From a virus, in IMG/VR virus record IMGVR_UViG_3300021171_000012, positions 6,984 through 70,983 of that record: DNA of 64,000 nt; one strand, given 5' to 3'. Below the pieces are notes generated by a model that was not told where the DNA came from, made no database searches, and saw only the letters and a program-made list of their open reading frames with translations. Positions within the stretch are counted from its first letter, which is position 1. Every line of letters begins with the position of its first letter. Shown here in pieces: positions 25,057 through 64,000 of the stretch. The translations under genes and the position numbers were made by a program.

Positions 25057-25326
25057 GTGCCCACTAAACATCTTCAGCTATCCGAGCTAATAGATCGTGA
25101 AGCTCGCTTTATCGCAACCGAGATCCTCGAAGCTCGATTGACTAAATTCGATCTCCCACTACCGAAAGAGTCTGCACTCGACATTCATATTGATGCAATT
25201 CTAGCTGCAAAGCCGGAACTCTATGAGCAGGCAAAAACTCGTGTCGAAGCTCGAAAGGACGCCTTTAGCGAGGCCCTTCGCGCGATCGACATAGAAGTCG
25301 AGATCGCCCAAGTGTTGGACATCTAA
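25057..25326 (+). CDS. Hypothetical helical protein (C-term QVLDI)
   Basis: AAGGA RBS, GTG start. Confidence 0.6.
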   Translation: MPTKHLQLSELIDREARFIATEILEARLTKFDLPLPKESALDIHIDAILAAKPELYEQAKTRVEARKDAFSEALRAIDIEVEIAQVLDI

Positions 25327-26452: not shown

Positions 26453-26773
26453 ATGACCGACACCCCAAATCCAAATCTCAAAGCAGCTTTAGTCGGATCG
26501 CTGAGATTGATAGAGTCTGAGTCGGAACCGCAAAGTGGAACCGACGAATCCCCGCTTCGCGAGGCTACAGTCGACAGTGTAGACTATTTCCTCGACCGGA
26601 TTAATCAAAAGCTCATTGACGGAATGCCAGTTCCGAATCAGGACTTAGAGCAGCTAGCGAACTTCTATCGAGCACAAGCTCTAAAGTGGGCTCAAGAGGA
26701 GGACATTAAGAAGACAAAGTCCCAAACCAAGCGCGAAAAGAAATTCGCCCCCGGAGAGATTATGGACATATAA
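26453..26773 (+). CDS. Hypothetical protein (C-term EIMDI)
   Basis: 106 aa, GGAG RBS. Confidence 0.6.
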   Translation: MTDTPNPNLKAALVGSLRLIESESEPQSGTDESPLREATVDSVDYFLDRINQKLIDGMPVPNQDLEQLANFYRAQALKWAQEEDIKKTKSQTKREKKFAPGEIMDI

Positions 26774-28418: not shown

Positions 28419-29468
28419 ATGCCCGGACTAATCGACCCCAGTTCCGAACTCGCAAAGATTCTCCTTATTGGCGATCAGGGCGACGGAAAGACCGGAGCAA
28501 AAGCGGCGCTTATAGCGATGGGTTACAAGCTCTTAATGATAGACACAGATCGTGGCTTCAAGATCCTCAGGAGCCTATTAACCGACCCACACTATCCCTA
28601 CGCCGCGTTTATGAAGAAGCACGGAATCAACCCCGCTGAGCCTGGTAGAATCTCCTACATCCCCATCGACGTTCCGATCGACTTCACTGATGTTAGCGTA
28701 AACCGCAAAGGCCGTGCAGTAAATTACTCCGTTCTCGGCCCAACCTCCTCCGCCGCGTGGGAGACCGTAACAAAGCTTCTCAAAGAATGGAAAGACACCT
28801 CCGACGGAAAAGCGATCTCCCTCGGCGGGATTAATGACTGGGGACCGGATACGGTTTTAGACTTCGACACGATGTCTACTCTCGCCGAGCTTGCCAAATA
28901 CTGGATGCAAGACATGAACGGACATTTAGGTGCGTTCGAGGACGATCACGGTCGAGACAGCGGCGGCGCGCAAGAACTAATCATGAGGTTAATGACAAAG
29001 TTAACCAACGACGCCGTGAAGTGCAACGTGATAGTCACAGGGCACATTAAGTGGGTTGACATGTCGAACGACGTTCCCCAAGGTATCGAGGAACGAATTA
29101 GGGAAAAGAAAGCCATCGACGCTCAAGGCTTCCCGGCAGTAATTGGCAAAGCCACCTCTCCGTATATCGGCAAGAAGTTCAATGACGTCTTTATCGTTAA
29201 ACGGGAGGGAAACGGAAGCAGTTTAACCCGAAAAATCTACTCTGTTCCAACAAACAACACAAGCGCAAAAAACTCTGTATGGCTCGAACCATCCTATCCA
29301 CTATCCACGGGCTTAGGCGAGATTTTCTGCGCTCTGCAATATAAAGATCCACCCGTTGAACTCATAAAGGCCATCCGTGGCACAACCTCTACTGGGAAGG
29401 ACACTGACGTAGCTACTTCGGGTTCTTCCCCCGTAGCGAAATCCGGCTTCGGATTTCGACCTAACTAA
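28419..29468 (+). CDS. Sak4-like / AAA_24 P-loop recombinase
   Basis: KILLIGDQGDGKT, IDTDRG, FDTMS, NVIVTGH; sits between the exonuclease and an SSB-like gene. Confidence 0.7.
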   Translation: MPGLIDPSSELAKILLIGDQGDGKTGAKAALIAMGYKLLMIDTDRGFKILRSLLTDPHYPYAAFMKKHGINPAEPGRISYIPIDVPIDFTDVSVNRKGRAVNYSVLGPTSSAAWETVTKLLKEWKDTSDGKAISLGGINDWGPDTVLDFDTMSTLAELAKYWMQDMNGHLGAFEDDHGRDSGGAQELIMRLMTKLTNDAVKCNVIVTGHIKWVDMSNDVPQGIEERIREKKAIDAQGFPAVIGKATSPYIGKKFNDVFIVKREGNGSSLTRKIYSVPTNNTSAKNSVWLEPSYPLSTGLGEIFCALQYKDPPVELIKAIRGTTSTGKDTDVATSGSSPVAKSGFGFRPN

Positions 29469-35651: not shown

Positions 35652-36839
35652 GTGTCAGATTGGATTGAAGAATTTATCGCCAAGACGACTTCGATACGGA
35701 GCCCTGAGATTTTCCGTCTTTGGTCTGCTATTGGAACCGTCGCGGCAGCACTCGAACGCCGTGTTTGGACTTCGACGGACGTTGCACCACTCTATCCGAA
35801 CCTCTTTACGATCTTAGTAGGACCGCCAGCTTGTGGAAAGACTAATTCGGTTAAGGAATCACGAAAGATGTTAGCCCCCATAACGGGTATGAAGCTCGGA
35901 CCGGACAACCCAACTCCGGCCTCGTTTATGGACGAATTAAGCAAAGCAACAGTCTTTGGTCTGAACGGTCAGAATAGCGGCCCAAGCGCGGCGATGACCG
36001 TCTTATGCGAGGAATTTGGGGTTCTAATTCCAAAGTATGATGACTCTTTCTTTGCAACATTAAGCAAACTCTATGACAACCCTTCAATGTACACTGCTCC
36101 ACGGCGGACCTCAGTGTCGATTAAGATCGAAAACCCGACAATTAATATCCTTGGCTGTGCAACGCCGCCAGCTATAGGTAGTCTGCCCGAAAGTGCTTGG
36201 GGCGAAGGTTGTACGTCGAGAATAATATTCCTCTATGGAACCAAGCCAAACTCCCACCGTGATGCGTTTAAGAAGCGCATAGACTCCGATATGAAAGAGC
36301 TCCAAAATCGAATCTCCGAGATTTTCTCCGATATTCATGGTGAGTTCGAGTGGGAAGAACCAGCGCGCTTAGCCTATAATCATTGGTATAATGACGAACA
36401 GATGGCCCCAGTCCCAACCTACGGTCGCCTAGTAAACTACAATGGTCGTCGCGATACCCATGTTATGAAACTCTCCATGATTTCCGCAGTTAGCGCGGAG
36501 CACGGACTTACGATTACCCTAGACGATTTCATCCGCGGGCGAAAGTGGCTTTTAGACGCGGAGCAGACTATGCCCGATGTCTTCCGAGCTATTACACAGA
36601 AGTCTGATGCGCAGCTTCTCCAGGATCTACACTATTGGATGTACACGGAATATTCTAAAGTCGCCCGTGACAAGCGAAATCCAATTCCCGACGGGGAGGT
36701 CTGGAAGTTCCTTGAAAACAAGACAACTAGTGACAAAATCCCCGGACTCTTCAAGGCCGCGGAGTCCTCGGGTCGAATGAGAAAGAACTTTGGAACAAAC
36801 TCCTGGATACCAAACCCGTTTAATGGGGTCGAGGAATGA
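35652..36839 (+). CDS. DUF3987-like P-loop ATPase (putative replicative helicase)
   Basis: LYPNLFTILVGPPACGKT, EEFG, L..LYD, INILGCATP, SRIIF. Confidence 0.7.
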   Translation: MSDWIEEFIAKTTSIRSPEIFRLWSAIGTVAAALERRVWTSTDVAPLYPNLFTILVGPPACGKTNSVKESRKMLAPITGMKLGPDNPTPASFMDELSKATVFGLNGQNSGPSAAMTVLCEEFGVLIPKYDDSFFATLSKLYDNPSMYTAPRRTSVSIKIENPTINILGCATPPAIGSLPESAWGEGCTSRIIFLYGTKPNSHRDAFKKRIDSDMKELQNRISEIFSDIHGEFEWEEPARLAYNHWYNDEQMAPVPTYGRLVNYNGRRDTHVMKLSMISAVSAEHGLTITLDDFIRGRKWLLDAEQTMPDVFRAITQKSDAQLLQDLHYWMYTEYSKVARDKRNPIPDGEVWKFLENKTTSDKIPGLFKAAESSGRMRKNFGTNSWIPNPFNGVEE

Positions 36840-49197: not shown

Positions 49198-49198
49198 A

Positions 49199-50554: not shown

Positions 50555-50570
50555 GTTAGGCTTCTCCCGA

Positions 50571-50597
50571 CTAAAGAGCAAACTCAGGCGGCGGAAT
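50571..50597 (-). repeat. Displaced duplicate of the DUF2163 gene 3' end (IPPPEFAL*)
   Basis: ATTCCGCCGCCTGAGTTTGCTCTTTAG versus ATACCCCCGCCCGAATTTGCACTTTAG at 51160-51186. Confidence 0.85.
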
Positions 50598-50598
50598 T

Positions 50599-51144
50599 TT
50601 AAATGTCTAATACAATGCCGGGTATGGCCTTGCTTATACGTACTCGTGAAGATTTCGTAGTAGCTAATACATTATCAATCTCATCGTATTCTCTATATAG
50701 GCGAATAGTGGTTAGAGCCTCCGCTAATTGTGCAACATCTGCCCACAACGCAGGATTACTCTGCTTCAATCCACCATGTATGTCCCTACTGCAACATGCA
50801 AGTACCGCCAGTCTCCATATAGCAAAATCTGAAGCCTTTTTTGCACGAAGCGGGTACTTATCAAATATATCTACTAGAACTCTGCAATCTTCCCGGGCGC
50901 TAACTGCATACACAACTGTTGGATTCAAACGACTATGATCTCTATCTGCGTATATATTGCCTACCCCCACTTTATTACGTACTTCCACTAAAATCTTATA
51001 ATCGTCTGCGCGCAGACGAAGTTGAAAACTACATGTATATCCATATCTATTCTTTCCACGCTCAACGCGTCGAGTTATACTGAAACTACCTTCTCCATCG
51101 GTAAATCCTGCAAACCAATGAAAAAATGCATCATCTTCAGACAT
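50599..51144 (-). mobile_element. Free-standing single-motif LAGLIDADG homing endonuclease (C-term IVLDI)
   Basis: WFAGFTDGEGSFSI...D..IL......GVG.I...FDKYPL..KK..DF..W. Confidence 0.88.
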
Positions 51145-51159
51145 ATCAATCTCTCTCGA

Positions 51160-52113
51160 CTAAAGTGCAAATTCGGGCGGGGGTATGTAGGGCATTCCGC
51201 CGAACCGAGCTAGATTTTGAAACGTCCCATTACAGGTTGCAGTTGTATGGTCACAGCCAGGTAGAATGTAGAATGTATCACCGGCAGTGACTAAGCTCAG
51301 CCACGGTTTAATCAGATAGACAAATCCAGGTTGAATAGAACTAATCGTCCGTGTCTGGCCAGCGTTTGCGCCGGTTAGACACACAATAGTTCCATCATTA
51401 TAAACCGTTGCCGGCGATGGGCTGAAGCTAGTAGCAACAGCACCGCCCCCACTACTGGACAGAGCAGTAATATTAACCAAACCAATCCCTGTCGACGTTC
51501 CATTCGCCGCGGTGCCAGTTACTCGATTATAGCCGCATCCAACATCACCGAAGACATGACTACACGATGACATGAACATCCTTCGAGGCATCTGCTGAAT
51601 CTGAAGCAGATTCATCATTGATTTTACTTTTATCATTACTTTCGATCGCCCAACGTCGCAATCAGCAACCCGACCATAGAACCAGATTAAACAACCTAAA
51701 GCTCCTGTGTCGATATGATCTCCAATCGGGGGCGGGGCAAACAGACGGTCTAGTTCAATCGTTGCGCCATCGAACAACCCGATCCTAACTGCCTCAGCGA
51801 AAGGCGTTTGTCCGACTAAGTCATTAATACTCGGATAAACTTCAATATCAAGTTCCGCAGGTTCAATCCCAATCTTTACTGTCGCTTTTGTTGGTCCGAA
51901 CTTCGGCCCCGCGGCGAAAAATGACACAGGAAATACAGTTAACAAACTCCCCGCTGGGAAACTCGAACTAGGCACGGCTAGGGGCGATGTCCAAGACGTG
52001 TAGAACAGGGTAGGGGAACCAACCAGATCAAATGTATACAGATCCACAATCGCCGCGGCTAAATTCGCTGGATTCGCCAAATATGCTTTAAGGGCCGGCG
52101 TACAGGGTCTCAT
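51160..52113 (-). CDS. DUF2163/BR0599-like baseplate hub protein
   Basis: G.FDGA...L.R, C.H.FGD.GC, PGCD.T..TC...F.N..RFGG.PYIP. Confidence 0.85.
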   Translation of the reverse strand: MRPCTPALKAYLANPANLAAAIVDLYTFDLVGSPTLFYTSWTSPLAVPSSSFPAGSLLTVFPVSFFAAGPKFGPTKATVKIGIEPAELDIEVYPSINDLVGQTPFAEAVRIGLFDGATIELDRLFAPPPIGDHIDTGALGCLIWFYGRVADCDVGRSKVMIKVKSMMNLLQIQQMPRRMFMSSCSHVFGDVGCGYNRVTGTAANGTSTGIGLVNITALSSSGGGAVATSFSPSPATVYNDGTIVCLTGANAGQTRTISSIQPGFVYLIKPWLSLVTAGDTFYILPGCDHTTATCNGTFQNLARFGGMPYIPPPEFAL

Positions 52114-53012
52114 TGAAGAACACTCTGTAGCTTAATTGCCTTGGCTTCCCAAATTTGCCAAAGAAAATTAGAAAAATCTGTTGAATCCTCAGCAAAGCGA
52201 ACGTAGAAGTAATATGAAAATGACGCGGTGACGGCTGAACCGGGCATCGGAAGCGTGCTCCCACGGAACGTGAGACGTTGGTTGAGTGCCACATTATTAT
52301 CTACAATAAAATTAAGCGGATCAACCGGCAGTCCGTTTACTTGAACAACCGTCGGGACTCCTGGTAAATTACCCGTTACGAACCCTACGTTTTCTGTTGT
52401 TAGTAGAAATGTCCTTTGCATCACTATTGGCCGCTGCCAAGAAATAATATCATTCGGCCCTGTTGGAAGGACAATAGGAGGGTTTATAGAAACAGTGAAC
52501 GGAGATGGGAATCCGGTTACATATGTCGGAAAGGTAAATGGCTGAAATCCACCTATTATCGTTTCATCTTGTATCATATCTCCGATCTGCATTCCCACAA
52601 CGGGAGCAGGAAGTGAAAGTACATTTTGTCCAGGAAATGCTGGCCCTGAAAGCATACCAATTCCGCTGATGGTATTCGCCAATGGCTGACCAAATACGTG
52701 ATTATCACTTGTGTCCCAGAAGGCAAACCCACCAAACTGACCCTGCATAAGGGTGAATGTGCCCATAAGGGTTCGTAATTCGTCGAAATTACCGAACTGA
52801 CCACGCCCGCCATTAGAACCACGAACGTCCCACATATCACGAAGAAATTCAAATGGGAGGGTCCAGGTCCAGACAGGAAGAGGACGGTCTAGGATTCGGA
52901 GTTCTCGACCAGATACAGATGTTTGAATCCGAGTTCCAAACTTAGGAACCTTCATGACGGGAAAGCCTACTCCCGGAAGGAATGGGAATTTTATATATGG
53001 GTCGATCGCCAT
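52110..53012 (-). CDS. DUF2460-like distal tail protein
   Basis: P.F.T.IQ.S.SGRE.R...GQ..GF.F.D..D...VTA.F.Y...VRF.ED. Confidence 0.8.
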   Translation of the reverse strand: MAIDPYIKFPFLPGVGFPVMKVPKFGTRIQTSVSGRELRILDRPLPVWTWTLPFEFLRDMWDVRGSNGGRGQFGNFDELRTLMGTFTLMQGQFGGFAFWDTSDNHVFGQPLANTISGIGMLSGPAFPGQNVLSLPAPVVGMQIGDMIQDETIIGGFQPFTFPTYVTGFPSPFTVSINPPIVLPTGPNDIISWQRPIVMQRTFLLTTENVGFVTGNLPGVPTVVQVNGLPVDPLNFIVDNNVALNQRLTFRGSTLPMPGSAVTASFSYYFYVRFAEDSTDFSNFLWQIWEAKAIKLQSVLQ

Positions 53013-53013
53013 T

Positions 53014-56000
53014 CTAATACGCCATGCTTCGCAGAGAGTTCGCTCGGAACATGTCTCGGAACACGTTCGAGTTATTACTTATTATACCCTTAAACCAGCG
53101 GTCTATGCTAGGTCCGTCAGCTGGACCGTGGAAGTGCATATGGACTTCAGGAGACGAACCGCCAGCATTGCCGGAGTTTATCATATTCTGCATTCCAGTT
53201 GAGAGATGCTCTGGGAGGACCATCTCTCGGGGATGAAGGATACTAAGAGAACCTCCAGTAAGTCCCCCAGACGCAAAACTAGGGACAACCATTCCCTTCT
53301 CGGCAAATGCCAAAGCAAGTGTCGCAGCTTCCCCTATCGCACTGGCACCGCCGCCTCCCGCGCCACCCGCTGCCATTGCCGCTGACAAAATTGGCGCCGC
53401 CTCGACAGCGCCGGCAACAATTCCTGCACTGAGAATTGGTGCTCCCGCTGTCGCTCCAGCAACCTCCGCTGATGTTTTCGTAGCAGTTTCTGTTCCAACA
53501 TCGAATAGTTTGCCAACACCTTTTGAGATAAGATCACCAAAGACCTTGTCAAGTCCTTCACCAGCAGTATTATCGAACAAAGTTTTTGCTAAAGCTTTCG
53601 ATGCTGTCGATGCAAACGCCTTTAGAAGACCTTCGCCGATCGCGGTTGCAACCTGACCTTCAGCCTGTTTCCAGGTCGTTTTCTTCGACAAGACTCCAGT
53701 AATCGCGTTCTCAAGCGCCGAGGCAACGGAGTCGAATGCCTTCGTCCATGGCTCGGCCCACTTCTTCGTAATCGCCTCCTGCGCTGTTCGCATCTTTTCC
53801 AATAGTTGCTCGACTTCGGTTGTTTTCTTAATCCCGAGATCCCACTGTTGCCACCAGATTCGAGTCTGCTCAACGGAACCTTTAGTTGCATCCGCGATAC
53901 CGTAGACGGCATCGGCGGCATCCATTTCTTTCTTTAAGACTTCAGATAAAGCCCCGTTGAGTCGTTCAACCTCTTGGATGTCGTACTTATATGCATCGAC
54001 TTTAGAAATCCCCGGCCGCTTCTGAATATCAGCTTCAAAGCCGCGTAGAATGTCCGCAGCGGCTTTACTTTGCCCAGCATAGGACTCCTGATTTAGTCGA
54101 ACCTGTTCTTTCAATACGTCGTTCTGAGCCTGTTGTAGTCTAGTTTGCGCAGCGATTTTCTCGGCAGCGGACTTATATGGATCAGCTTGGATGATCGCTA
54201 GTTCTTCTTTGCGAATATTGACGATCTCAGCTAAATCGTCCCTAGCCCGAGCTGCGGCCTCCCGCTGCTGAAGCTGGGCCATTGTAGATTGCTGAGTATA
54301 ATTAAATTCTTGTTGTTTGAGTCTAACACCATCCTCAACAGTCTTTATAATCGCCACTCGCTGGTCGGCTTCAACCTTTCCCAGAGCAACATTCTGACTA
54401 TTTACGACATTAACCTTTAGAAATGCCTCTTTCTGATCCGCGCTCATAGACGCAAATTCAGTCTCTTTCTCCCGAAGACGATTCAAGGCTTCATAATCAT
54501 GCCTCTCTTCAGCAACTAGCTTTCGTAGACGCAGCTCGGCTTCATAAGCTTTCTCTGACGCTCCTAAGTCAAATGGTGACATTTCCCCAGAAGTCGACGG
54601 AGCACCTGGAACTGCTGTAGCCGCGCCAGTACCTTGTACAACACCGGACGTATCATACGGACCGCTCTTGGCCCAAGATTGCGATGCGTTCGGACCATAC
54701 TTACGAAGTAAAGCTAGGGCATTTACGTCTTGCGACGCTGGGGATATGTCGTACTTGCCAGTTATCGCCCCCATTTCGCGATAAGTCCCTGGCTGAAATC
54801 CATACGCGCCGAAGGCGTGAGACTTAAAGCCCTTTAATGCCTCGATTTCCTCTAACGAGGAGACAGTCTGTCCAGTTGCGTGGAAGGTATCGTAGCGTCC
54901 ACCACCTTCTCGTTGACGTACTTGGGCTAGAATAGCACTCTCGCTCGCAGTTGCGCTAGGTATATTAACTGCTCCAGACCCGTATGGATCAGCATAGCGC
55001 CACGCATTTCCCTGATCCATACGGCGCTGAATAGCGTCGGGAACTTTGACCGCCGCCTCGCCAGCGCGATCTAACATAACAATTAGAAGTTCAAGACCCT
55101 GTATCCAATTACGGAAATACTCTCCCGATGTAACCGACGCCTTGAAGCCCTCCCAGGCAACCGAAAGTTCGTTAATATCCTTATTTATAGAAACCAGTGC
55201 ATCATGATTCGCAGTCATGAACGGGTTAAGTGACTCCGATGCCGACATCAATTCGCGGAAGTTTTGGGAACCACCCTTAATTGCCGACATAATTTCCATA
55301 AACTGTTGTCGGCCACCAAAGGCTTCCATAATTCGCGAAGTTCTCTCCGCGTCGCCTCCAATTCGGACAATATAGTCCGAAATATCCATAAGCGTTTGCA
55401 TCGCGCCCTGTGGATCGCGAAGGCGCTTTAGCATTTCGTCCCAAGTTAGACCCATGTCACGAAAGGCCGACATCGCCGGCCCTTGCGGCGCCATAACCGC
55501 TTCTTGCATTCGACGCTGGAGGGTTTCTAATGTCCGTGCAGCAGTTTCGGCAGAGCCTCCCGTTAAACGAAGGGCACCAGAAAATGCAATATACTGAGGA
55601 ACCGAGATCCCAACCGCTGCCGCAACATTCTCTTGCCGCTCAGCAAGTTTGCCTAACTCTTCTCCCCACTTAGTTAAGTCGCGAGCTACAGCAGCCCCGA
55701 TAGCGATGCCCGCTAGGCCGACTAAACCTGAAATTAGAGTTGAGGCCCCCGCGCCAGTATCTCTCAACATCGAGCCGAATGTCGAGAACATCTGACTGAA
55801 GCGGCCACTCTTAAATTCGTCAAAGAGGGCAACGAAATGCTTTGCCTCCCGTTGGGCAAAGGCAAAATTGTCTCCAGTGTCTTTGACTCCCTTACTCAAT
55901 TGTGCATGTGCCGTTGCAGCTGCTTGAATCGACGCAACACTCTCTCGCTGAACGGCTTCATTCGCCTTGACTTGAGCATAGTAAAGTGCCGCGTCGCGCA

Positions 56001-56469
56001 TCTGATTCTGTTCGAGCTTAGCACGCTCAGCAGCGAACTCTTGCTCCATTCGTAGTCGTGCAGATCCCTTGGCGACATCGGCAAGACCTGCTTGTCCAGC
56101 TGCAAACGATTGAGCAGACTTTAACCGCGCTGCTAGTAACTCGGCTTCAGCAGTGGCTTGCTGTCGTACAATACTCGTCGAGTTTTGTCGTATCGTGTTT
56201 TGAGTCTCAAAAGCGCGAGTTATTTTATTAATTGCCGATAGCTCTTCTGGTAGAGCAATATTAAACTGCGCGCGTAGCGCATTCATCTGCGTTGTTGCAC
56301 TTGTTATCTCAGTATTTATTCGCCGTATAGCATCTGCCGCCCCAGCACCGCTAGTATTTAAAAGTGCAAGAAGAGTCTCACGCAGACCACTGATATTTCT
56401 TTTCAGACTCTCTACTGCATCTATAGCCTCATTACGAGCTGTTAGTCTAATTCTATATTCATCGGACAT
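53014..56469 (-). CDS. Tape measure protein with an embedded lambda-R-like lysozyme/transglycosylase domain
   Basis: 1151 aa, Ala-rich helical; REGGGRY...SHAFGAYGF...T...ISPASQD..A; C-terminal LHPREMVLP. Confidence 0.88.
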   Translation of the reverse strand: MSDEYRIRLTARNEAIDAVESLKRNISGLRETLLALLNTSGAGAADAIRRINTEITSATTQMNALRAQFNIALPEELSAINKITRAFETQNTIRQNSTSIVRQQATAEAELLAARLKSAQSFAAGQAGLADVAKGSARLRMEQEFAAERAKLEQNQMRDAALYYAQVKANEAVQRESVASIQAAATAHAQLSKGVKDTGDNFAFAQREAKHFVALFDEFKSGRFSQMFSTFGSMLRDTGAGASTLISGLVGLAGIAIGAAVARDLTKWGEELGKLAERQENVAAAVGISVPQYIAFSGALRLTGGSAETAARTLETLQRRMQEAVMAPQGPAMSAFRDMGLTWDEMLKRLRDPQGAMQTLMDISDYIVRIGGDAERTSRIMEAFGGRQQFMEIMSAIKGGSQNFRELMSASESLNPFMTANHDALVSINKDINELSVAWEGFKASVTSGEYFRNWIQGLELLIVMLDRAGEAAVKVPDAIQRRMDQGNAWRYADPYGSGAVNIPSATASESAILAQVRQREGGGRYDTFHATGQTVSSLEEIEALKGFKSHAFGAYGFQPGTYREMGAITGKYDISPASQDVNALALLRKYGPNASQSWAKSGPYDTSGVVQGTGAATAVPGAPSTSGEMSPFDLGASEKAYEAELRLRKLVAEERHDYEALNRLREKETEFASMSADQKEAFLKVNVVNSQNVALGKVEADQRVAIIKTVEDGVRLKQQEFNYTQQSTMAQLQQREAAARARDDLAEIVNIRKEELAIIQADPYKSAAEKIAAQTRLQQAQNDVLKEQVRLNQESYAGQSKAAADILRGFEADIQKRPGISKVDAYKYDIQEVERLNGALSEVLKKEMDAADAVYGIADATKGSVEQTRIWWQQWDLGIKKTTEVEQLLEKMRTAQEAITKKWAEPWTKAFDSVASALENAITGVLSKKTTWKQAEGQVATAIGEGLLKAFASTASKALAKTLFDNTAGEGLDKVFGDLISKGVGKLFDVGTETATKTSAEVAGATAGAPILSAGIVAGAVEAAPILSAAMAAGGAGGGGASAIGEAATLALAFAEKGMVVPSFASGGLTGGSLSILHPREMVLPEHLSTGMQNMINSGNAGGSSPEVHMHFHGPADGPSIDRWFKGIISNNSNVFRDMFRANSLRSMAY

Positions 56470-56906
56470 TATAGTAATCCCGTTGCAATAAGATCGCGCA
56501 ACTTCTCTGCGGCAAGTTCAGCTTCGTTTCGGATGTCACGAAATTCTCTAGACGGTGGGTGGAATACCGACGGAGTATGAACCAGTGCTCCGTCTTTCGT
56601 TCCGATAAATCGAAGTAGGTTTGCCTTCGTCGGTACGATCCAATAGTAACTCTTTCCCCCAAACTCTCTTGCGATCGCCTTCGGCTCCGCCGGCTCAAGA
56701 TACCCGATAACCGTATTTCCGAGTTCCTCAACTCCATAGTCGATCTTAAACGACGGTAGGGCGCCGGCTAATTTCGTATGGGCCTCACCAATAACGAGGT
56801 TCATCTTCTCGACTAGAGCTAGCTGAAGTTTTCTAGGTAACTGATCTAGGTTAGCAATAACCTCAGATGAGTTATCAGAGAACGCTAGAGATATTAGATC
56901 CGTCAT
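56469..56906 (-). CDS. Putative tail completion/neck protein
   Basis: A...EFGG...I.P.KA..LRF...V.HP pattern. Confidence 0.55.
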   Translation of the reverse strand: MTDLISLAFSDNSSEVIANLDQLPRKLQLALVEKMNLVIGEAHTKLAGALPSFKIDYGVEELGNTVIGYLEPAEPKAIAREFGGKSYYWIVPTKANLLRFIGTKDGALVHTPSVFHPPSREFRDIRNEAELAAEKLRDLIATGLL

Positions 56907-57230
56907 TGAATAGTTGCGGTTCCGGGTTGACCGGGGGTTAGGCCAAAACGACCTAGTAGGCTATCAAGACTCGACACTGAGGAACTTACACTAGCGGTCT
57001 GGTCAAAGGTGACCATGCGAGGGGGCTTGTATTGAAAGTATGCTGCAATAAACCAATCTGCTGGAGGATGTCGGGACCACGCCTTCTGAAGTTCCGCGTA
57101 CCATTTCAGGGTGATGGTTCGCTTGACGGCGAAGGGGTTTCCACCGCAGATTCCCCTGATGGCAAGCTCGGCGACGAGGGAGTCAATGTTCCAATCCCAC
57201 TGTTCTCTCTCGTCGCCTCGGCTTCCCCCG
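56903..57230 (-). CDS. -1 frameshift extension of the tail assembly chaperone (gpGT-like)
   Basis: Slippery CGGGGGAA at 57230-57223; the -1 frame is open to TGA 56903 (…WSRHPPADWFIAAYFQYKP…). Confidence 0.75.
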
Positions 57231-57570
57231 TTATTAGGCCCGACTTCGCAAAGAGTTCATTCAAAGTCGCTGCTAAGCCCATAGCTTCACTGGCAGAGCA
57301 AGCGCGAGATAGTTTAATTCGAGTTGCCTCTGGTTCCCCCACTCCATCCGACGGAGCGGTTAGTTCCGCAATCATACTAACAATGTTCGACGCATAGCCA
57401 ATCCAATCACCTGGAACTAGGGCTTGGATGTACGGCTTTGTCCGTTCGAGGTCGAACAACGTTAGTGCTCGAACTCGGATCTGAGTTCCGCCAATAATAA
57501 AGTCGACATACTCGCTCGGTGCCATCGGCGGAATCGACATATCCGCCGTCTTTCCATTTCCGTCTGCCAT
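57106..57570 (-). CDS. Tail assembly chaperone (gpG-like)
   Basis: Lies between tail tube and TMP; SGL..GE followed by a low-complexity tail. Confidence 0.75.
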   Translation of the reverse strand: MADGNGKTADMSIPPMAPSEYVDFIIGGTQIRVRALTLFDLERTKPYIQALVPGDWIGYASNIVSMIAELTAPSDGVGEPEATRIKLSRACSASEAMGLAATLNELFAKSGLITGEAEATRENSGIGTLTPSSPSLPSGESAVETPSPSSEPSP

Positions 57571-57582
57571 GATTATAAGCCT

Positions 57583-58596
57583 CTATTGACTTGTTCCACC
57601 AAATCTCGCCGCCCAAGCGCCGCGCTGCTTCGGGTAGTTGACGAGATCCCCATTATATCCTGAGCCATTGCCGCCGTTCCAATAACCGACAAACCCACTC
57701 GCACTCCAATAACCACTGGTAGCAGCGGGAGCGATCCAATTAGTATCGACCCAATTTGCCATCTTATTAATAAAATATGGGTTATCCCCTACCGTCGAAT
57801 CCCCCGCTGCCCACTCAGGTAGAGCTAACGGCTTTGGAAAACAGCACCACCCGTTCTGAGTCAGGTTGTTGTTGAACGTGGTGAGATCGTCCAACATGAT
57901 CTGCACGCGGCTAGACCAGTATTCCACTGGGTCACAAGTAAAACCGCTGCAAGTATGATCGTAGATATCCACCCCGATTATGTCTACGTACCACCAACCG
58001 GGAAAGGTGTCTTTATAGTTGGGCATCTGGTAGTAATCGCCGTTGGGGTTCCACACAAATTTAAAGTTCGGGCTGTACTGGCGGAACTGGTTAACGACGC
58101 GCTGGAACGCAGCAATGTAGTGTTGTACATAATTAGAGTCGCTAGCATTGGCCTGTACGCCCCACGGATAACAACAGTTAAATTCCCAAGCCACACGGAC
58201 AATCGAGTCGCCGTAGCCGCAAGCGACAAGCTGAGAGGCAGCGTTGGCATAATGTGCGTCGTAAGCGCCGGCCGCCGCCTGGGCCATCGTTGCATTCTCG
58301 CCAGCCGGAAAGAACCCAATTGCATAGACCATTCGTCGAATACGCGGCTGATCTACAGAACAGGCCCAATACCACGCCGAGCCGTCGAAATTAGCCCACC
58401 CACCTTGATTGTTTGGTTGGTCGGCAACAAAGATATAGTCCATAATCTCGTGCGCCGGTCGGTTCGTCCAGCCGTCGAGCTGATCAAGCGTTTCGGCCCC
58501 GTAGCCCGTGTACATGGCGACCGGGACATTAGGATCAGCACAGGCAAGTCCATACCAACAGACGGTAGCCAGTGCCGCTAACAACCAACGCTGCAT
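57583..58596 (-). CDS. Secreted glycoside hydrolase, GH26-like
   Basis: Signal MQRWLLAALATVCWYGLACA; RVAWEFN (acid/base), FVWNPN, VDIIGVDIYD, KPLALPEW (nucleophile). Confidence 0.85.
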   Translation of the reverse strand: MQRWLLAALATVCWYGLACADPNVPVAMYTGYGAETLDQLDGWTNRPAHEIMDYIFVADQPNNQGGWANFDGSAWYWACSVDQPRIRRMVYAIGFFPAGENATMAQAAAGAYDAHYANAASQLVACGYGDSIVRVAWEFNCCYPWGVQANASDSNYVQHYIAAFQRVVNQFRQYSPNFKFVWNPNGDYYQMPNYKDTFPGWWYVDIIGVDIYDHTCSGFTCDPVEYWSSRVQIMLDDLTTFNNNLTQNGWCCFPKPLALPEWAAGDSTVGDNPYFINKMANWVDTNWIAPAATSGYWSASGFVGYWNGGNGSGYNGDLVNYPKQRGAWAARFGGTSQ

Positions 58597-58606
58597 ACCG
58601 AGTCTC

Positions 58607-59410
58607 CTAAACTGCAACACTCAACGTACCGATATTCCCCGACCCGTCTGCAAATGCAGAGAAGTCCATTTCAGGGATGACGTAATCGTCAATTCGAGTC
58701 GGGTACGTTAGGCGCTGGCTAGTGCATTGATTTAGAACTAGTACAACTTGACTGATTGGGGCAGGATTAGACCCAGCATACTGTTGGTAGAATGTCGCTT
58801 GAAACGTCGGTGTGTTACCCATCGGCTGATTCGACAGTGTAAGCAGCTGTCCCGTAGCAGCTTTGTATGTGTAGTTAATATTAAAGAGATTTCCCTGATC
58901 GGCGGAGAAGAAGCTATAGACACCCGTAGCAGGGTTAAAGTGATATGTTGCACTCACCGACGGAACGGCAGTCGCTACAGCGGTTAGCTGAGCACCGGGA
59001 ACTCCACCCGACAATGAGCCACTGGCGTAAAAGACTCCAAGATCGACAAGAGGAACTGACGAAGCATTGGCGACAGTGTAACTGAGTGCAGGACTTGGAA
59101 GTGTTGCAGCTTCGTTTCGGGCAAACTTCAACTGTCCTGTCGTCTGTGCCGAAACGGGGCCAAAGAAAATGTCGTTATACATCGCCGCCTTTATGCCGGC
59201 GAACTTAGCCTTTCCAGAGATTTTAGTCTTCCCACGGGCGGTGTCGACAGGATACTGCAACTGGCCATATAGTTCCTTGATGTCGCCAGAAAACTCGATA
59301 GTAACATCCTGCAACGTCCCAAACGGGCGCGGCGTTTGGGTTCCACCTAAGTCGGTCCGAACACCTGTTAGAAAACCCGAGCCGAATTCATAGACATCGT
59401 TAACGGCCAT
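58607..59410 (-). CDS. Major tail tube protein
   Basis: FGSG.L...P..FG.LQDV..EFSG..KELYGQ.QYP...ARGK.KI.GKAK...DDY.IPE.DF.AFAD. Confidence 0.8.
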   Translation of the reverse strand: MAVNDVYEFGSGFLTGVRTDLGGTQTPRPFGTLQDVTIEFSGDIKELYGQLQYPVDTARGKTKISGKAKFAGIKAAMYNDIFFGPVSAQTTGQLKFARNEAATLPSPALSYTVANASSVPLVDLGVFYASGSLSGGVPGAQLTAVATAVPSVSATYHFNPATGVYSFFSADQGNLFNINYTYKAATGQLLTLSNQPMGNTPTFQATFYQQYAGSNPAPISQVVLVLNQCTSQRLTYPTRIDDYVIPEMDFSAFADGSGNIGTLSVAV

Positions 59411-59422
59411 ATTCTATACTCC

Positions 59423-59917
59423 TTATGGAAGAAGAACTCTAATTGGAAGACACAAGAATGCCTGGCCGTCAATGTCGCCAGGATCACGGATATGAAGACC
59501 GTTTGTTCGGTCTATTCTAGCCCAATAGCAAAGACCGTTTAGAGTTAATTCATTTCGCTCAGTGTCGTCAGGGACAAGAGCGTTTTCAATAGCAATTTCC
59601 ATCGCATCAAGTAGGTCATCGCCGATGATCGTATTGTCTCCCGCGGCAGGGTCGCCGGTTGGGGCATAACACCAAGCACCGAGATCGAGATACCGACGTC
59701 GTAACTGTCCTGCTCCATATTCCTGATACGTCTCCCGATGCTGAACTAAAAACATCGCCGGTTGGCTTTCTTTCGGCACTGCAGTCCAAAGCTTCAAGCG
59801 GCGCCCGGTTAAGTTCCAGGTCGAAAAGCCGTTTACCGGAATATCGAACACCGCGGTCGATATTAGACTAAACAGGGCTGACTTGATCTGGAAGCGGATG
59901 TTCATTAGACGGTTCAA
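59423..59917 (-). CDS. Tail terminator-like protein
   Basis: RRLKLW..V....QPA.F...TL.GL...DPGD.DGQ; upstream of the tail tube. Confidence 0.65.
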   Translation of the reverse strand: MNRLMNIRFQIKSALFSLISTAVFDIPVNGFSTWNLTGRRLKLWTAVPKESQPAMFLVQHRETYQEYGAGQLRRRYLDLGAWCYAPTGDPAAGDNTIIGDDLLDAMEIAIENALVPDDTERNELTLNGLCYWARIDRTNGLHIRDPGDIDGQAFLCLPIRVLLP

Positions 59918-60335
59918 TCACTCTTCGGGGAAACTCAACGTGCTTTTCGCCAATAATAACCTCGATCGCCGCGCCTCGATTTAGCCAAAACTCGATCAAC
60001 TCCATGATAACAGGTTGGGTCCACGCTGTAGGGTGCGCCGGATCGACATGGACGTACAGTAACTTCGGGTCATCGCGATCATACGGACCAAACATAACGT
60101 GGCAGTTGTTCGGCCGCAAGTCCCACGACATCTGTTCAGTAGGGTCTTCTCTCAATTGTGATGAGAGCCAGAGACAGGCAAAATCTACACAGGCATCAGG
60201 TTTTCCCGACTTATGTACCGCACAACCACCATGAGGTCTTTCGGCGTTCCAGCACCACATTCGAGCAGGCTTTTTCAGATCGGGAATTGCCAGAAGATAG
60301 CAACAGAGACTACAGGAACCACAGCTATACGGCAT
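59868..60335 (-). CDS. YkgJ/FliB-like cysteine-cluster protein
   Basis: CGSCSLCC...C...GC.VH...P.AC..F.C.WL...RP. Confidence 0.7.
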   Translation of the reverse strand: MPYSCGSCSLCCYLLAIPDLKKPARMWCWNAERPHGGCAVHKSGKPDACVDFACLWLSSQLREDPTEQMSWDLRPNNCHVMFGPYDRDDPKLLYVHVDPAHPTAWTQPVIMELIEFWLNRGAAIEVIIGEKHVEFPRRVIEPSNEHPLPDQVSPV

Positions 60336-60621
60336 TGTGTGACTCAACTGCTGTCTTTGGAGTAATAATATAGCGTCGCTCAACATGCTGACGAATTAGC
60401 CCACCCAAGTTCGTCATGATGTCTTTAGTCAATTCTGCCCGAACCCCGGGTGGTTCAACACACGCAACGATCGACGCCAAATGGTTCATTAGCATCTGAA
60501 TAACGTCATGGGTTGGAACCCCGATCGCCAACGCTTCGCGCTCTGCGGCGGCCAAGGCGTGCTCAACAGGGCGCAGGATGAGCACCCCGAGGTTGGCTGA
60601 GGGCTTCTGATCGTCTGGCAC
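60325..60621 (-). CDS. Hypothetical protein
   Basis: GGAG RBS, GTG start. Confidence 0.5.
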   Translation of the reverse strand: MPDDQKPSANLGVLILRPVEHALAAAEREALAIGVPTHDVIQMLMNHLASIVACVEPPGVRAELTKDIMTNLGGLIRQHVERRYIITPKTAVESHNAV

Positions 60622-60624
60622 AGG

Positions 60625-60858
60625 CTATCTCCGCAATGACAATCCACTACCAAGAAGACACGACAACACATCGAATACTATGACAACTATTCCAATCAAG
60701 ATAGCAGCCCCGATCAGAATCTTCATAATGGCTACCACAAGATTACCGTAACTTCCTAATGGAATCAATGGTAAGATAAGCTGCACTATAGCAATCAATG
60801 CTCCAACGACGATTAGCCATACAATAATTACCATAACGAAGTGAAGGTCTATGCACAT
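60625..60858 (-). CDS. Small two-TM membrane protein
   Basis: Two long hydrophobic segments. Confidence 0.6.
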   Translation of the reverse strand: MCIDLHFVMVIIVWLIVVGALIAIVQLILPLIPLGSYGNLVVAIMKILIGAAILIGIVVIVFDVLSCLLGSGLSLRR

Positions 60859-61724
60859 CAGACGCTTGCTCCCATCGGGGGTGGTAGGACGTTCAGATAC
60901 GGAAGCAGAATGTCAACAGCGTATTTCGGAATCCCGCTTAGGTCAAATGTAACCGTCATCTGTCCGCCTACATTGTGACTATGCTCTCCAACACGACTTC
61001 GATAGCTCGCTCGCTCCGCGATTAGTTCGAGAGCAACCTGTTCAATGTCAGCAGGGACATAACCATAGTTGAATAAGACCGCATTACTGGACTCACCAGT
61101 ATTGAATGTGTATTTGGTCGTCGGACTAGGCGCATCCGGCGCTGGCGGAATATACTGACCTAAAGATGGCGCCGTCGAGACCGCTACTAACGGGGCTTTC
61201 GTCGCGGCGTATGTAACCCCCTGATCCGTTGCCCACGTCCCAAATGGTGTTTGTGGAGTGTATGAGCCTGATGCATCGAGCGTCGCGGCTTCGCCAGTGA
61301 CCTGATACCCCGCCGTGTATGTCGCAATGACATTTTGTTTTCCCCAAATAAAGGTGGCACCACTAAGTTCGATCGCCGCGGGTTCGCCCGGAGGTTGACC
61401 GTCCCACGGTTGATAGCGCCAACCATACGGAATAATCGCAGTAGTCGAATTACTTGCTGGAAGCGCCTGTTGGATGACAACCCCATCGACTACTAATGAC
61501 GCTAGCGAAACAACAGGCCACTCCGGTAGAACTAGTTGTCGTGTTCCAGTTCCATCAAATTGATGAACGTAAGTTCGTGGAACTAGAAGTCGCCGGTTAA
61601 GCGAGTTCCGAATCATGGCCGAGATTCGAGTTATTAAACCAGCCAAAACTGGGTCAGCGGGCGGCGAGTTTATATACAGCTTCGCCGCGCCTAGAGTCGT
61701 CAAATCTCCGCCGGCGAGACTCAT
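60858..61724 (-). CDS. Head-tail connector/adaptor (gp6/gp15-like) with an inserted domain
   Basis: DLTTL..AK.Y...L..LI...S..I...L.R...DG.G...L.L..WPV...VPADIEQ..LEL. Confidence 0.75.
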   Translation of the reverse strand: MSLAGGDLTTLGAAKLYINSPPADPVLAGLITRISAMIRNSLNRRLLVPRTYVHQFDGTGTRQLVLPEWPVVSLASLVVDGVVIQQALPASNSTTAIIPYGWRYQPWDGQPPGEPAAIELSGATFIWGKQNVIATYTAGYQVTGEAATLDASGSYTPQTPFGTWATDQGVTYAATKAPLVAVSTAPSLGQYIPPAPDAPSPTTKYTFNTGESSNAVLFNYGYVPADIEQVALELIAERASYRSRVGEHSHNVGGQMTVTFDLSGIPKYAVDILLPYLNVLPPPMGASV

Positions 61725-61990
61725 ACTGGATCTTTCGGTTGTTGAGTCGGAGCGTTCGGATCAACAGCCGGCTCCGCCGCTCCCGGTTCCTGAACCTGAC
61801 CGCCCGGTAGATTTGGGTCAATCTCCATCGGAGCCGGCCCAGTTCCAGCGACTCGAACAACCCCAGGAATCTCCTTCAATACTTGATCTCCGAGTTCATC
61901 AGGAACCTCAAATACACCCTCCTCATCGACACCGTATTCAATTCCGCCAATACTGACGCTAGTATGGCCCTCGGGAAGTTTGAACCACAT
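61721..61990 (-). CDS. Small head-associated protein; paralog of 61995..62396
   Basis: MWFKLPEG..SVS...D..G.F..PD. Confidence 0.55.
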   Translation of the reverse strand: MWFKLPEGHTSVSIGGIEYGVDEEGVFEVPDELGDQVLKEIPGVVRVAGTGPAPMEIDPNLPGGQVQEPGAAEPAVDPNAPTQQPKDPV

Positions 61991-61994
61991 AGAC

Positions 61995-62396
61995 TTATCC
62001 TTTCACTTTCGTTGTTGGCTTCTTCAGTTCTTCGATCTCTTCCTTCAATTGAGAGACTTCACCTTTAAGGTTGTTGTTCTCAACCTTGAGATCGTCCCGT
62101 TGCGCTGAAAGCTCTGCGATTGTTGAACGTAAGTTGCCATTTTCTAGCTTAAACGCTTCAACCTGACTAGCAACTCTAACGAGCGCGTCGTCGCTAGATC
62201 GACTCTCCATCGGTATCTGGATCTTATCTGCGTCGGGTGGCTTTTTCGCGATGAAGCCGGGGAGGTCGAGAATCAATGGTGCGAAATGGTCGGGAGCATG
62301 AAAGTACTCCCGACCATTTTCGTCAGCGGCTTGAGCAGAGAAGTCCTGAAGCTGAACCGAGATGGCACTAACGCCTTCGGGAAATTGGAACCACAT
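61995..62396 (-). CDS. Head-associated protein with coiled coil
   Basis: MWFQFPEG.SAIS...DENG...F.APD plus heptad tail. Confidence 0.6.
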   Translation of the reverse strand: MWFQFPEGVSAISVQLQDFSAQAADENGREYFHAPDHFAPLILDLPGFIAKKPPDADKIQIPMESRSSDDALVRVASQVEAFKLENGNLRSTIAELSAQRDDLKVENNNLKGEVSQLKEEIEELKKPTTKVKG

Positions 62397-62398
62397 TT

Positions 62399-63088
62399 TT
62401 ATATCTCCAAGACAGAAGAGTGTTTGATACGTGGGGAGCTTAACCTTCGCACAATTGGAGGCGCAGGTTTAATGTTTACTACTTCTGGTACGCTACTATC
62501 AGGCTCAACTTTTCCAGATAGTGTAGCGATTACATCCTGGCAAAACTGCAAGAACTGTCCGTCGGTAAACTCTCCGCGGGCTCTATTTGCTTGATATGTT
62601 ACGAGACGAATGTTGCCTTCAACGTATCCTAAACTAGCTTCTATCCTATCAACTGACAGCGTATCGCGATGCCAGCCTCCTTGACCCCATAATAGTTTAC
62701 GGCCAGTCAAAGCACATAACCCGTCTTGCATCTCATATACATCTTTTACATACTCCGGTGTAATCTCGAAGACAATACCTTTAGCCTCACACTGTCGCCG
62801 ACGCACATGGAAAGCCATTCGCATACAGTCTAGAAATTCACTTCTAGCTCTAACATAGGCCCGGCGCCGGTTATTACTATATCGAGTCGGATCTTCAATG
62901 TTCTTGCGTTTGTGGCAAGCCAGTGAGTGTGGATTGTTCTTTTGAATGTGACAATCTTTACAGTCCGATCTGTAATTATTCAGACCGTCGCCGCGCTTAA
63001 AGAACTCGGTCACTGACTTTGTTTCGCCACACGTTCCGCATTTCTTGTAGCCAACGCTGTTGCTAAGTGGTATATTGTTCACGGCCAT
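62399..63088 (-). mobile_element. HNH-type homing endonuclease (C-term SVLEI)
   Basis: KKC..C.E.K...EF...CK.C; Q.G.CALTG...SVDRI....GY..GNI.LV...AN; AGGAG RBS before ATG 63088. Confidence 0.8.
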
Positions 63089-63118
63089 TGATCGCACTCC
63101 TACTGCGGTTGATGGATA

Positions 63119-63153
63119 GACACCGGACAGTGTTGGTAGCATTGTCCGGTGTC
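63119..63153. other. 11-bp stem-loop between the capsid gene and the HNH gene
   Basis: GACACCGGACA / TGTCCGGTGTC; loop reads ATGCTACCAACAC on the minus strand. Confidence 0.6.
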
Positions 63154-63177
63154 GTCTTTTCGTCGAGCTAGCTATCA

Positions 63178-64000
63178 TCAGAATATAAAGGTCCCCGTCG
63201 AGGGGTTCTTGTTAGTGATAACAGCGAACGCGGGCGTGAAATAACAGGAAAAAACTTCATCTACATAGACGCCATACTCGTAACGACGTGAACGCCATGG
63301 CCACTGGATTTGGTAATAGTCCTGCCTGACTCTTGCCTCCAACAAGTTAGAAACTCCAGAGAGTTCGTATGGACTCCGATCACTCCAGAAAATGATCGTC
63401 CCCGGCGGAACAAACGGATGGACTTCAACATCAAGGGTATTGTTGAAGAATTTATTCATATACGATGTAACTTTCCGCCCCGCAATTATGCGGCCCGTTT
63501 CCTGCTCAGCATCAAACAAGATTCGGAAGATATTGGCGTTCGACCCCTGGTTGAGCATCGCACCGAAGGTATCGAGCATGTCGGCGGATGACATCAGGAT
63601 TCGATCAAAGCCGAGCTTGTATTGGTCATATGCGGCTTGAAGGACGGCATCAAATTGGGGAATTGTCGAGCCAGTAATAGTCAACCCCGTGTTGCCAGTT
63701 CCAAGATTATAGAGAATAGACCCTCCTGCGGAGAGGCTGATTCCCGCCGGGACCACTGGATTCGTCGCCATCGCGCGGCCCGGATCTGGACCCATAATGG
63801 CACCGAAGATCTGAGGCAATAGACCGTCGGGAACTAGAGTATCGACGCTGTTGTCCGCCGGACTTCCACCGACATAAACTGCCGAGAGGGGTTGGCCCGT
63901 CGAAGCAGGGACTTTGGTGAAGATCGCCTGATTCGACGGCGTAAGGCCGGCTAGGTACATTGTCGAGGGCGATGCGGCAGTGGAGCCGACAAACCATGCA
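63178..64000 (-). CDS. Major capsid protein, C-terminal part (runs off the right edge)
   Basis: DGLL.Q...VHPFVPPGTI...DYYQIQWP..SR.YEYGVY.DEV...Y..PAF.VI.N; upstream of head-tail genes. Confidence 0.8.
   Translation of the reverse strand, partial: AWFVGSTAASPSTMYLAGLTPSNQAIFTKVPASTGQPLSAVYVGGSPADNSVDTLVPDGLLPQIFGAIMGPDPGRAMATNPVVPAGISLSAGGSILYNLGTGNTGLTITGSTIPQFDAVLQAAYDQYKLGFDRILMSSADMLDTFGAMLNQGSNANIFRILFDAEQETGRIIAGRKVTSYMNKFFNNTLDVEVHPFVPPGTIIFWSDRSPYELSGVSNLLEARVRQDYYQIQWPWRSRRYEYGVYVDEVFSCYFTPAFAVITNKNPSTGTFIF

Follow-up and report, generated by a model that had tools for sequence, protein, structure and literature searches.

Nine of the 108 genes called in the genome of an uncultured siphophage-like virus encode proteins that end in the same short motif, aliphatic-Leu/Met-Asp/Glu-Ile/Leu, which we call the tag. 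The window analysed is a stretch of 64,000 nucleotides, bases 6984-70983 of the IMG/VR record IMGVR_UViG_3300021171_000012 (70,983 bp, ~99% complete by CheckV), and the tagged products in it are a putative LAGLIDADG homing endonuclease, an HNH-like protein and seven other proteins (Table 1). We propose that the tag acts as a short docking motif through which its carriers are tethered to a hub associated with DNA, a reading to which we give a probability of about 0.5. The striking features of the system are that the tag varies from phage to phage and that invading genes appear to have adopted it.

The tag is far more frequent at the C-terminus than would be expected. The pattern [VILMF][LIVMF][DE][ILVMF] ends nine genes where the internal rate in the same proteins predicts 0.29 (Poisson P 3e-11), and the expectation falls to 0.03 for the stricter pattern [VI][LM][DE][IL]. 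None of the 380 remaining open reading frames (ORFs) of at least 40 amino acids ends in this way. A shared ending might also arise by chance, from compositional bias, or because the ends of genes contain a nucleotide signal (a ribosome-binding site or a terminator, for instance); Leu-Glu-Ile codons can hold GGAG-like strings, and the next gene follows close behind several of the tagged genes. However, the enrichment and the lack of tagged non-gene ORFs argue against chance, and the codons, stops and downstream sequences of the tagged genes all differ (for example, GTT CTC GAC ATC TAG and GTA TTA GAC ATT TAA), implying selection or conservation of the peptide rather than the DNA. The phenomenon also recurs with other residues in four related phages. 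Together, codon variation, enrichment and recurrence effectively refute an explanation by chance or at the nucleotide level.

The context of the tag is also shared. The 20 residues that precede it are net basic, with a mean charge of +2.5 for eight tagged genes compared with +0.15 for 99 others (permutation P 0.004), and several tagged proteins have a proline 5-7 residues before the terminus. All nine tags have Asp or Glu in the penultimate position, and no tip contains an aromatic residue. AlphaFold2 models of the two nuclease-type proteins present the same architecture, a folded domain followed by a disordered linker and a short tip with a free carboxylate, as is usual for tethering motifs. 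A reading made earlier from the sequence alone had described the two nuclease-type ORFs as extending past their domains with basic tails that end in one motif, and both ORFs are as quoted there. That reading had also noted a P-G-x context common to the LAGLIDADG tail and to the genes at 18013-18390 and 26453-26773, which is borne out by the endings ..AIPGIVLDI, ..TAPGVVLEI and ..FAPGEIMDI.

The LAGLIDADG protein is a recognizable member of its family (Pfam PF00961, 9.8e-20, residues 12-112). Its AlphaFold2 model, with a predicted local distance difference test (pLDDT) score of 79, is matched by Foldseek to I-OnuI, I-PnoMI and I-TnaI at 4e-10 to 4e-9. Residues G13, F14, D16, G17, E18 and G19 of the LAGLIDADG motif are invariant in 15 sequences, and we take the acidic residue of this motif to be catalytic. 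The protein reaches 28 residues past the conserved R-x-Y end of the family; within this extension residues 162-180 are modelled with pLDDT below 50 and no secondary structure. The gene is an insertion relative to the related phage G004, in which the orthologues of 51160-52113 and 48748-49236 abut; here the nuclease gene and a 460-aa gene lie between them.

The second nuclease-type gene was considered an HNH nuclease in the sequence-only reading. The HNH-like label draws on matches to phrog_1035 'endonuclease VII' (1.8e-27) and phrog_3118 'HNH endonuclease' (1.7e-13) and by fold similarity, while the nuclease activity is uncertain because the expected catalytic histidine is missing from the family. 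Pfam returned nothing for this protein even at E<=10. The best Foldseek match of the model is PacI, weak at 1.2e-3, and VIA-align ranked PacI first (Z 7.2) followed by Cas9 HNH domains (Z 5.2-5.9), scores that are middling on the scale of that tool. D177-R178 is invariant in all 12 members of the family, at a position where we would presume an Asp-His pair as in HNH_3 and EndoVII-type proteins, and no histidine is conserved elsewhere. Residues N189 and N198 are invariant, and an N-terminal Cys4 zinc ribbon (C47, C50, C73 and C76) is nearly so. The protein could be an HNH-like DNA-binding protein that is atypical or has lost its activity. The protein also matches 'Srd anti-sigma factor' (1.7e-7) and a PHROG named decoy of sigma70.

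The tail of the HNH-like protein has a narrow distribution. AlphaFold2 models residues 221-259 with no secondary structure and with block means of 47-54 in pLDDT. Nine of 11 homologues terminate directly behind the domain; tails occur only in the closest two (53% and 58% identity) and end ..NLEI and ..IEELL. In the metagenome locus L072 the HNH-like gene (53% identical) directly follows the capsid gene (60% identical), the same position as here, and the linker differs by an indel while the ..LEI ending is kept. The HNH-like gene is absent from G004, in which the flanking orthologues are adjacent or nearly so. Alignment of the homologues of both genes, the check proposed with the sequence-only reading, indicates that the tail is not a structural trait of either nuclease family: 1 of 158 LAGLIDADG homologues has the tag pattern, and in the HNH-like family the tag-like endings are confined to the two homologues above. 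The claim that unrelated genes gained the tag independently is supported by these counts, by the lack of BLAST similarity among the nine tagged proteins, and by the position of both nuclease-type genes as insertions relative to G004.

The seven other carriers lie at 15.6-26.8 kb among non-structural genes. Neither Pfam nor PHROG gave a function for the small carriers, and a PDB sequence search with neighbouring proteins of no known function gave none either. Across this phage and its relatives, the tagged proteins that have a recognizable fold all act on DNA: the LAGLIDADG and HNH-like proteins here, SprT-like proteins in G001 and G005 (PF10263, 6e-10 and 5e-14), and a ParB-N/methylase in G006 with its homologue in G007. 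The ParB-N/methylase of the present phage has no tag. The gene at 26453-26773 belongs to a family whose members in five genomes end ..EIMDI, ..QVLDLDDLDFDAPASEQ, ..ANEDIL, ..KDLNL and ..NIDDLFSE. A profile search with this family recovered 44 proteins, in all of which a linker rich in Lys and Arg leads to an acidic/aliphatic tip. One subgroup was compared through 15 cluster representatives: each of the last 20 positions holds a single residue type (one holds two), compared with 3, 6 and 8 types at three linker positions.

Several further endings in this genome resemble the tag. Four more genes have a [DE]-Ile ending but not the complete pattern (582-1274, 16843-17229, 17208-17810 and 44743-45141) and were not counted as tagged. 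The endings ..LVADI (582-1274), ..AAVEI (17208-17810) and ..TVAEI (44743-45141) may be weak variants of the tag or chance occurrences, and two of these three genes are among structural genes. The gene at 16843-17229 on the plus strand is a third nuclease-like gene (phrog_374 'HNH endonuclease', 3.6e-21, with no Pfam match); it ends ..CFWEEI and has neither the full tag nor a basic linker.

We compared the tag in related phages, obtained from a scan of IMG/VR with PolA that gave 37 loci, after which the whole records were fetched. The gene sets of the present phage (G000) and of its relatives are our own greedy ORF-based calls. No gene within 10 kb of PolA in the 37 loci bears the tag of this phage, and in the larger relatives the tagged genes lie farther off. 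Each of four related phages has its own recurrent C-terminal tag, according to patterns that were defined after the data had been seen. In G001 (PolA 66% identical to G000) 5 of 115 genes end in [LM]DLDL, with an expectation of 0.019. In G004 (PolA 47%) 4 of 84 genes end in [DN]E[SD][IV]L, a pattern with no internal match in 19,478 positions, and in G005 (PolA 41%) 4 of 92 genes end in [EK]D[LM][GD]L, with none in 18,943 positions. In G006 (PolA 37%) xLDI, DLNL or DISL ends 4 of 63 genes, again with no internal match. The tag codons vary in all four relatives that were checked at the codon level.

Orthologues bear the tag of the genome in which they reside. The gene at 18013-18390 ends ..VVLEI here and ..ILDLDL in G001, and the gene at 25057-25326 ends ..QVLDI here and its G004 homologue ends ..QLISL. 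The tag is not confined to one phage, as the relatives each bear a variant of their own. With a fixed generic descriptor (last residue Leu, Ile or Phe; an acidic residue in the last five; two hydrophobic residues in the last four), observed and expected counts were 14 and 4.2 in G000, 8 and 4.5 in G001, 7 and 2.4 in G004, 8 and 3.5 in G005, 5 and 2.7 in both G006 and G007, 0 and 2.0 in G008, and 1 and 2.0 in the Caulobacter phage Kuura. G008 has only PolA and a UDG-like gene in common with the present phage, and none of its 71 genes fits the descriptor. In Kuura (L061), the proteins encoded at 33048-33374 and at 39440-40105 on the minus strand contain [NS]IDDL[FL]S close to the C-terminus, at a distance of three to four residues, and one of the two is a member of the 26453-26773 family. 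Kuura is a cultured phage with a known host and may serve for experiments on the tag.

The homologues of the LAGLIDADG protein provide a parallel for the position of the tag. A profile of 15 homologues was searched against 1.84 billion representatives and gave 12,562 matches at E<=0.001, from which the best 150 were examined together with homologues from an earlier search. Among 70 sampled single-domain LAGLIDADG proteins, 34 run at least 10 residues past the conserved end of the domain. A post hoc pattern, LF or Q[LM]x[LIVMF], is found in 31 of these 34 long tails compared with 7.5% of length-matched windows from the same proteins, and in none of the 36 short-tailed proteins. Examples are ..QLTLF.., ..PSLF.., ..QLRLIS and ..AVLF, with xxLF and QLRL[IV]S as recurring forms. 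These motifs fit the bacterial clamp-binding consensus, Q-phi-x-L-F or Q-phi-x-L-x-L, of which positions 1, 4 and 5 are reported as the most important (bioRxiv 10.64898/2026.05.27.728225). The LAGLIDADG tail of the present phage, at 28 residues the second-longest of the set, lacks the LF/QLxL motif and has the phage tag at its end instead. Transposases of unrelated families also bear C-terminal beta-binding motifs, a pattern interpreted as convergent evolution (PMC4549789). In our literature searches, clamp-binding motifs in homing endonucleases were not the subject of any paper, and nothing relevant came up on a shared C-terminal motif of phage proteins, on SprT together with phage and clamp, or on the tag strings. 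The finding that about half of the sampled single-domain LAGLIDADG proteins have a clamp-binding-like C-terminal tail is a side result that may be useful beyond this phage.

The mechanism we propose is as follows. The last four residues, including the free carboxylate, would act as a linear docking motif at the tip of a disordered, net-basic linker of ~15-40 residues, and through the tag, proteins with no other relationship would be tethered to a single shared receptor located at or close to DNA that is being replicated or recombined. Each related phage would have its own variant of the motif, and a protein, whether resident or invading, would bear the variant of the local genome. For the two mobile genes the likely gain would be delivery to DNA where cutting and repair occur. 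The DNA functions of the carriers and the parallel with the LAGLIDADG homologues point to a hub at DNA; we infer the binding of the tag, the identity of the receptor and the gain to the nucleases.

Two receptors can be named tentatively. The first, which we consider possible but doubtful, is the beta sliding clamp of the host, with the tag as a clamp-binding motif minus its glutamine. In its favour are the parallel with the LAGLIDADG homologues and the lack of a DnaN-type gene in five tag-bearing genomes. Endings of the form aliphatic-x-aliphatic or [SD]-aliphatic-aliphatic resemble the C-terminal half of clamp motifs, and [LM]-[DE]-[IL]-COOH aligns with L4-x5-L6 of the clamp motif in all nine tags, with no aromatic residue. 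The second, for which our confidence is similarly low, is a phage recombination or replication protein, either the Sak4-like ATPase or the DUF3987 helicase, which would read the tag as the C-terminal tip of SSB is read. The Sak4 protein of HK620 is reported to need the six C-terminal residues of its SSB (PMC5928155). The form D-[LI]-x-[LF]-COOH, seen in several tips, is similar to the SSB tip D-I-P-F-COOH. Four proteins, namely the Sak4-like ATPase, the DUF3987 helicase, the ParB-methylase and a small-terminase-like protein, occur in each of the six tag-bearing relatives compared and are missing from the untagged G008.

Profile searches for receptor genes gave the following results. No DnaN-type gene (PF02768) and no SSB gene (PF00436) was found in the five tag-bearing genomes, with positive controls in both searches, so a clamp or SSB, if used, would be that of the host. 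The profile of the T4-type clamp, PF02916, gave no match, yet the controls were also without a match and this search is uninformative. Of two conserved proteins of no known function, neither resembles a clamp; one looks like a small terminase and the other like a PD-(D/E)XK fold, although these are Atlas leads only. An uncontrolled complex prediction with two copies of E. coli DnaN, as a stand-in clamp, and residues 144-181 of the LAGLIDADG protein scored 0.02 against a mark of 0.34, a result that counts neither way.

Several points weigh against the docking motif or against one of its candidate receptors. No tag has a glutamine in register with Leu4 of the clamp motif; three of the nine (QVLDI) have one that is a residue off, and six have none. 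The tag thus misfits the clamp consensus at the positions reported to matter most (1, 4 and 5), and in the four genomes compared the phage PolA is always untagged. Bacterial clamps have a conserved pocket, which makes tips that are uniform within a genome and different between genomes hard to explain; this variation fits a co-evolving phage receptor or different hosts better than it fits the clamp. For a phage receptor that reads SSB-like tips, the linkers are basic where SSB tails are acidic, and there is no SSB gene. Seven of the nine carriers here and most of those in the relatives have no known function, so that the statement that all carriers act on DNA draws on six proteins. Both the LF/QLxL pattern and the patterns used for the tags of the relatives were defined post hoc, and the docking role is itself a proposal made from sequence and predicted structure.

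The sequence-only reading had offered a hub or a degron. Between these, the DNA enzymes among the carriers, the clamp-like motifs of the LAGLIDADG homologues and the acidic penultimate residue lean toward the hub. As a C-terminal degron, the tag would present a hydrophobic end to a host or phage protease, which would turn over proteins that are toxic or needed only briefly, takeover proteins among them. The motif does lie at the extreme C-terminus of an exposed, disordered tail, the carriers include potentially toxic enzymes (nucleases and SprT-like proteases), and the differences between phages could track different hosts. We also take the G004 variants ..AANEDIL and ..AADESIL to resemble the start of the E. 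coli ssrA tag. However, an ssrA-type degron needs non-polar residues in the last two to three positions, and acidic residues at the end of such tags abolish recognition by ClpX; the Asp or Glu at the penultimate position of every tag therefore argues against the ClpX type. The LAGLIDADG homologues bear clamp-binding-like rather than degron-like motifs at the same position, the ParB-methylase and many small proteins are tagged without an evident need for turnover, and the tag-bearing genomes have no phage-encoded protease in common. We consider a degron unlikely on this evidence.

AAA+ machines often read C-terminal tails, and the tag might mark clients of a putative MoxR-type remodelling pair in which the CobS-like AAA+ ATPase (19148-20791) is partnered by the DUF7192 protein (20976-22070). 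In G000, G001 and G004 the AAA_5 gene is immediately preceded by one or two tagged genes. The distribution across relatives makes this role improbable: in G005, with its four tagged genes, neither an AAA_5 match nor a second Walker-A protein was found, G004 is tagged but lacks a DUF7192 homologue, and neither gene is among those with a BLAST match in at least three of six relatives. The CobS-like AAA_5 ATPase, encoded with DUF7192 at 19148-22070 on the plus strand, matches phrog_249 'porphyrin biosynthesis' (5e-42).

Encapsulin cargo peptides are C-terminal, and by analogy the tag might be a cargo signal that loads proteins into the HK97-fold shell of the capsid for injection with the DNA. Translational coupling links the HNH-like gene to the major capsid gene, and the late structural operons contain both nuclease-type genes. 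Against this, the capsids of G000 and G004 are 72% identical and the tags differ, whereas the tags of G000 and G001 are the most similar and there is no detectable similarity between these phages in capsid, portal or terminase; most carriers are, in addition, among the non-structural genes. Given this distribution, a cargo signal is very improbable.

For the docking motif, a more specific form can be put forward, though we hold it only tentatively. The tag may be a private, fast-evolving C-terminal 'address code' in a clade of uncultured PolA-type siphophages, with one tip of 4-6 residues per phage and, as its reader, a hub for recombination or replication that the phage itself encodes (the Sak4-like ATPase, for example), and with the local tip required of residents and of invading selfish nuclease genes alike. 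The tip would then be both an organizer of the complex for DNA transactions of the phage and a barrier, or password, to mobile genes that move between phages. Should the tag prove to be a docking motif, it would bring some nine functionally uncharacterized proteins per phage into one interaction network, and a four-residue peptide would provide a handle on the hub. Free-standing homing endonucleases would, like transposases, depend on contact with a replication or recombination hub and would adapt this contact to each genome they colonize. The variation of the tip from genome to genome would offer a natural experiment on the co-evolution of short linear motifs and their receptors.

Table 1. 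Tagged genes of the window, the tails of the two nuclease-type proteins, and the candidate receptors
Feature	Position	Strand	Details
LAGLIDADG gene, free-standing, single-domain	50599..51144	-	181 aa, ends ...KSSRVRISKAIPGIVLDI; fold to ~residue 162, then disordered basic tail
LAGLIDADG tail, residues 154-181	50602..50685	-	last four codons 50602-50613 = V-L-D-I
HNH-like gene (endonuclease VII-like PHROG)	62399..63178	-	259 aa, ends ...RRLSSPRIKHSSVLEI; start overlaps end of major capsid gene
HNH-like tail, residues 221-259	62402..62518	-	last four codons 62402-62413 = V-L-E-I
Tagged ORF	15594..16193	-	199 aa, ends ..TDAVMEL; no Pfam or PHROG match
Tagged ORF	18013..18390	+	125 aa, ends ..APGVVLEI; G001 orthologue ends ..EILDLDL
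Tagged ORF	18392..18655	+	ends ..NPILEI; ATG start at 18392 inferred, longest ORF from 18371
Tagged ORF	23104..23406	+	100 aa, ends ..SQVLDI
Tagged ORF	24642..25040	+	132 aa, ends ..AQVLDI
Tagged ORF	25057..25326	+	ends ..AQVLDI; GTG start at 25057 inferred, longest ORF from 24910; G004 homologue ends ..AAQLISL
Tagged ORF	26453..26773	+	106 aa, ends ..APGEIMDI; small-protein family encoded just upstream of PD-(D/E)XK nuclease
Sak4-like AAA_24 ATPase	28419..29468	+	putative receptor; PF13479, phrog_124
DUF3987 helicase-type protein	35652..36839	+	second putative receptor; same distribution as Sak4-like gene

The gene content of the genome is siphophage-like. Structural genes occupy the left and right arms on the minus strand and include a portal-pyrophosphatase fusion, a 1151-aa tape-measure-like protein and the capsid. 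The central block of non-structural genes on the plus strand encodes the CobS-like AAA_5 ATPase, DUF7192, a PD-(D/E)XK nuclease, the Sak4-like AAA_24 ATPase, a primase zinc ribbon, the ParB-N/methylase, a UDG-like protein, a family A polymerase, the DUF3987 helicase, a dNMP kinase and a ribonucleotide reductase. No tRNA genes were found in this phage. A megablast search of 50000-64000 against the phage collection gave no match to a cultured relative, and the best cultured match to PolA is that of Kuura (34.6%). Searched against bacterial genomes, the PolA profile matched nothing but metagenome bins, of mixed taxa. Scans of IMG/VR with a single protein as query (the LAGLIDADG protein, the HNH-like protein or DUF7192) gave no match.

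Three further observations concern individual genes. The portal protein (8608-11013, minus strand; PF04860 at residues 157-487) has an inorganic pyrophosphatase-like domain fused at its C-terminal end (PF18823, 2e-41, residues 599-735). The 108-aa product of 8189-8515 on the minus strand matches the C-terminal part of the adjoining DUF4082 protein (7064-8185) with 52% identity across 91 residues, and from its sequence the pair looks like a local partial duplication among tail genes. The UDG-like protein beside PolA (32524-33723, plus strand) and its orthologues in G001, G004 and G005 all end ..[LE]KRDE, a charged ending that is distinct from the tag.

Among known systems, beta-clamp-binding motifs resemble the tag in being short and in lying on a flexible tail, at its free C-terminal end or close to it (a disordered terminus in both nuclease models here), and they too occur in unrelated DNA enzymes and have been acquired independently by mobile-element proteins. 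The LAGLIDADG homologues bear canonical-looking versions at the same place as the tag. The tag differs from these motifs in that it lacks an in-register Gln1 and the Phe, always has an acidic next-to-last residue, is uniform within a phage and different between phages, and is not found on the polymerase. Eukaryotic SPRTN and DNMT1 have PCNA-interacting tails, and the same enzyme classes, a SprT-like protease and a DNA methyltransferase, are tagged in the relatives; motif, clamp and domain of life all differ, and the likeness is one of analogy only.

The acidic C-termini of T7 gp2.5 and gp4 are read by the T7 DNA polymerase. The C-terminal tip of SSB, as in the NDYPPF of HK620 SSB that is read by Sak4, like the tag combines an acidic residue with hydrophobic last residues and a free carboxylate on a disordered tail. 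The readers of SSB are recombination and replication proteins, and every tag-bearing genome has a Sak4-like ATPase and a family A polymerase. In contrast to the single SSB, the tag has many different carriers, and it follows basic rather than acidic linkers, contains no Pro-Phe, and occurs in genomes in which PF00436 is absent. Degrons of the ssrA/MuA type lie at the extreme C-terminus with a hydrophobic last residue, and in MuA with basic residues upstream. The tag shares the location and the last residue; it departs from these degrons in its invariably acidic penultimate residue, and no link to a protease was found. Collectively, the tag fails the defining positions of clamp motifs, of the SSB tip and of C-terminal degrons, and it resembles each of them in outline.

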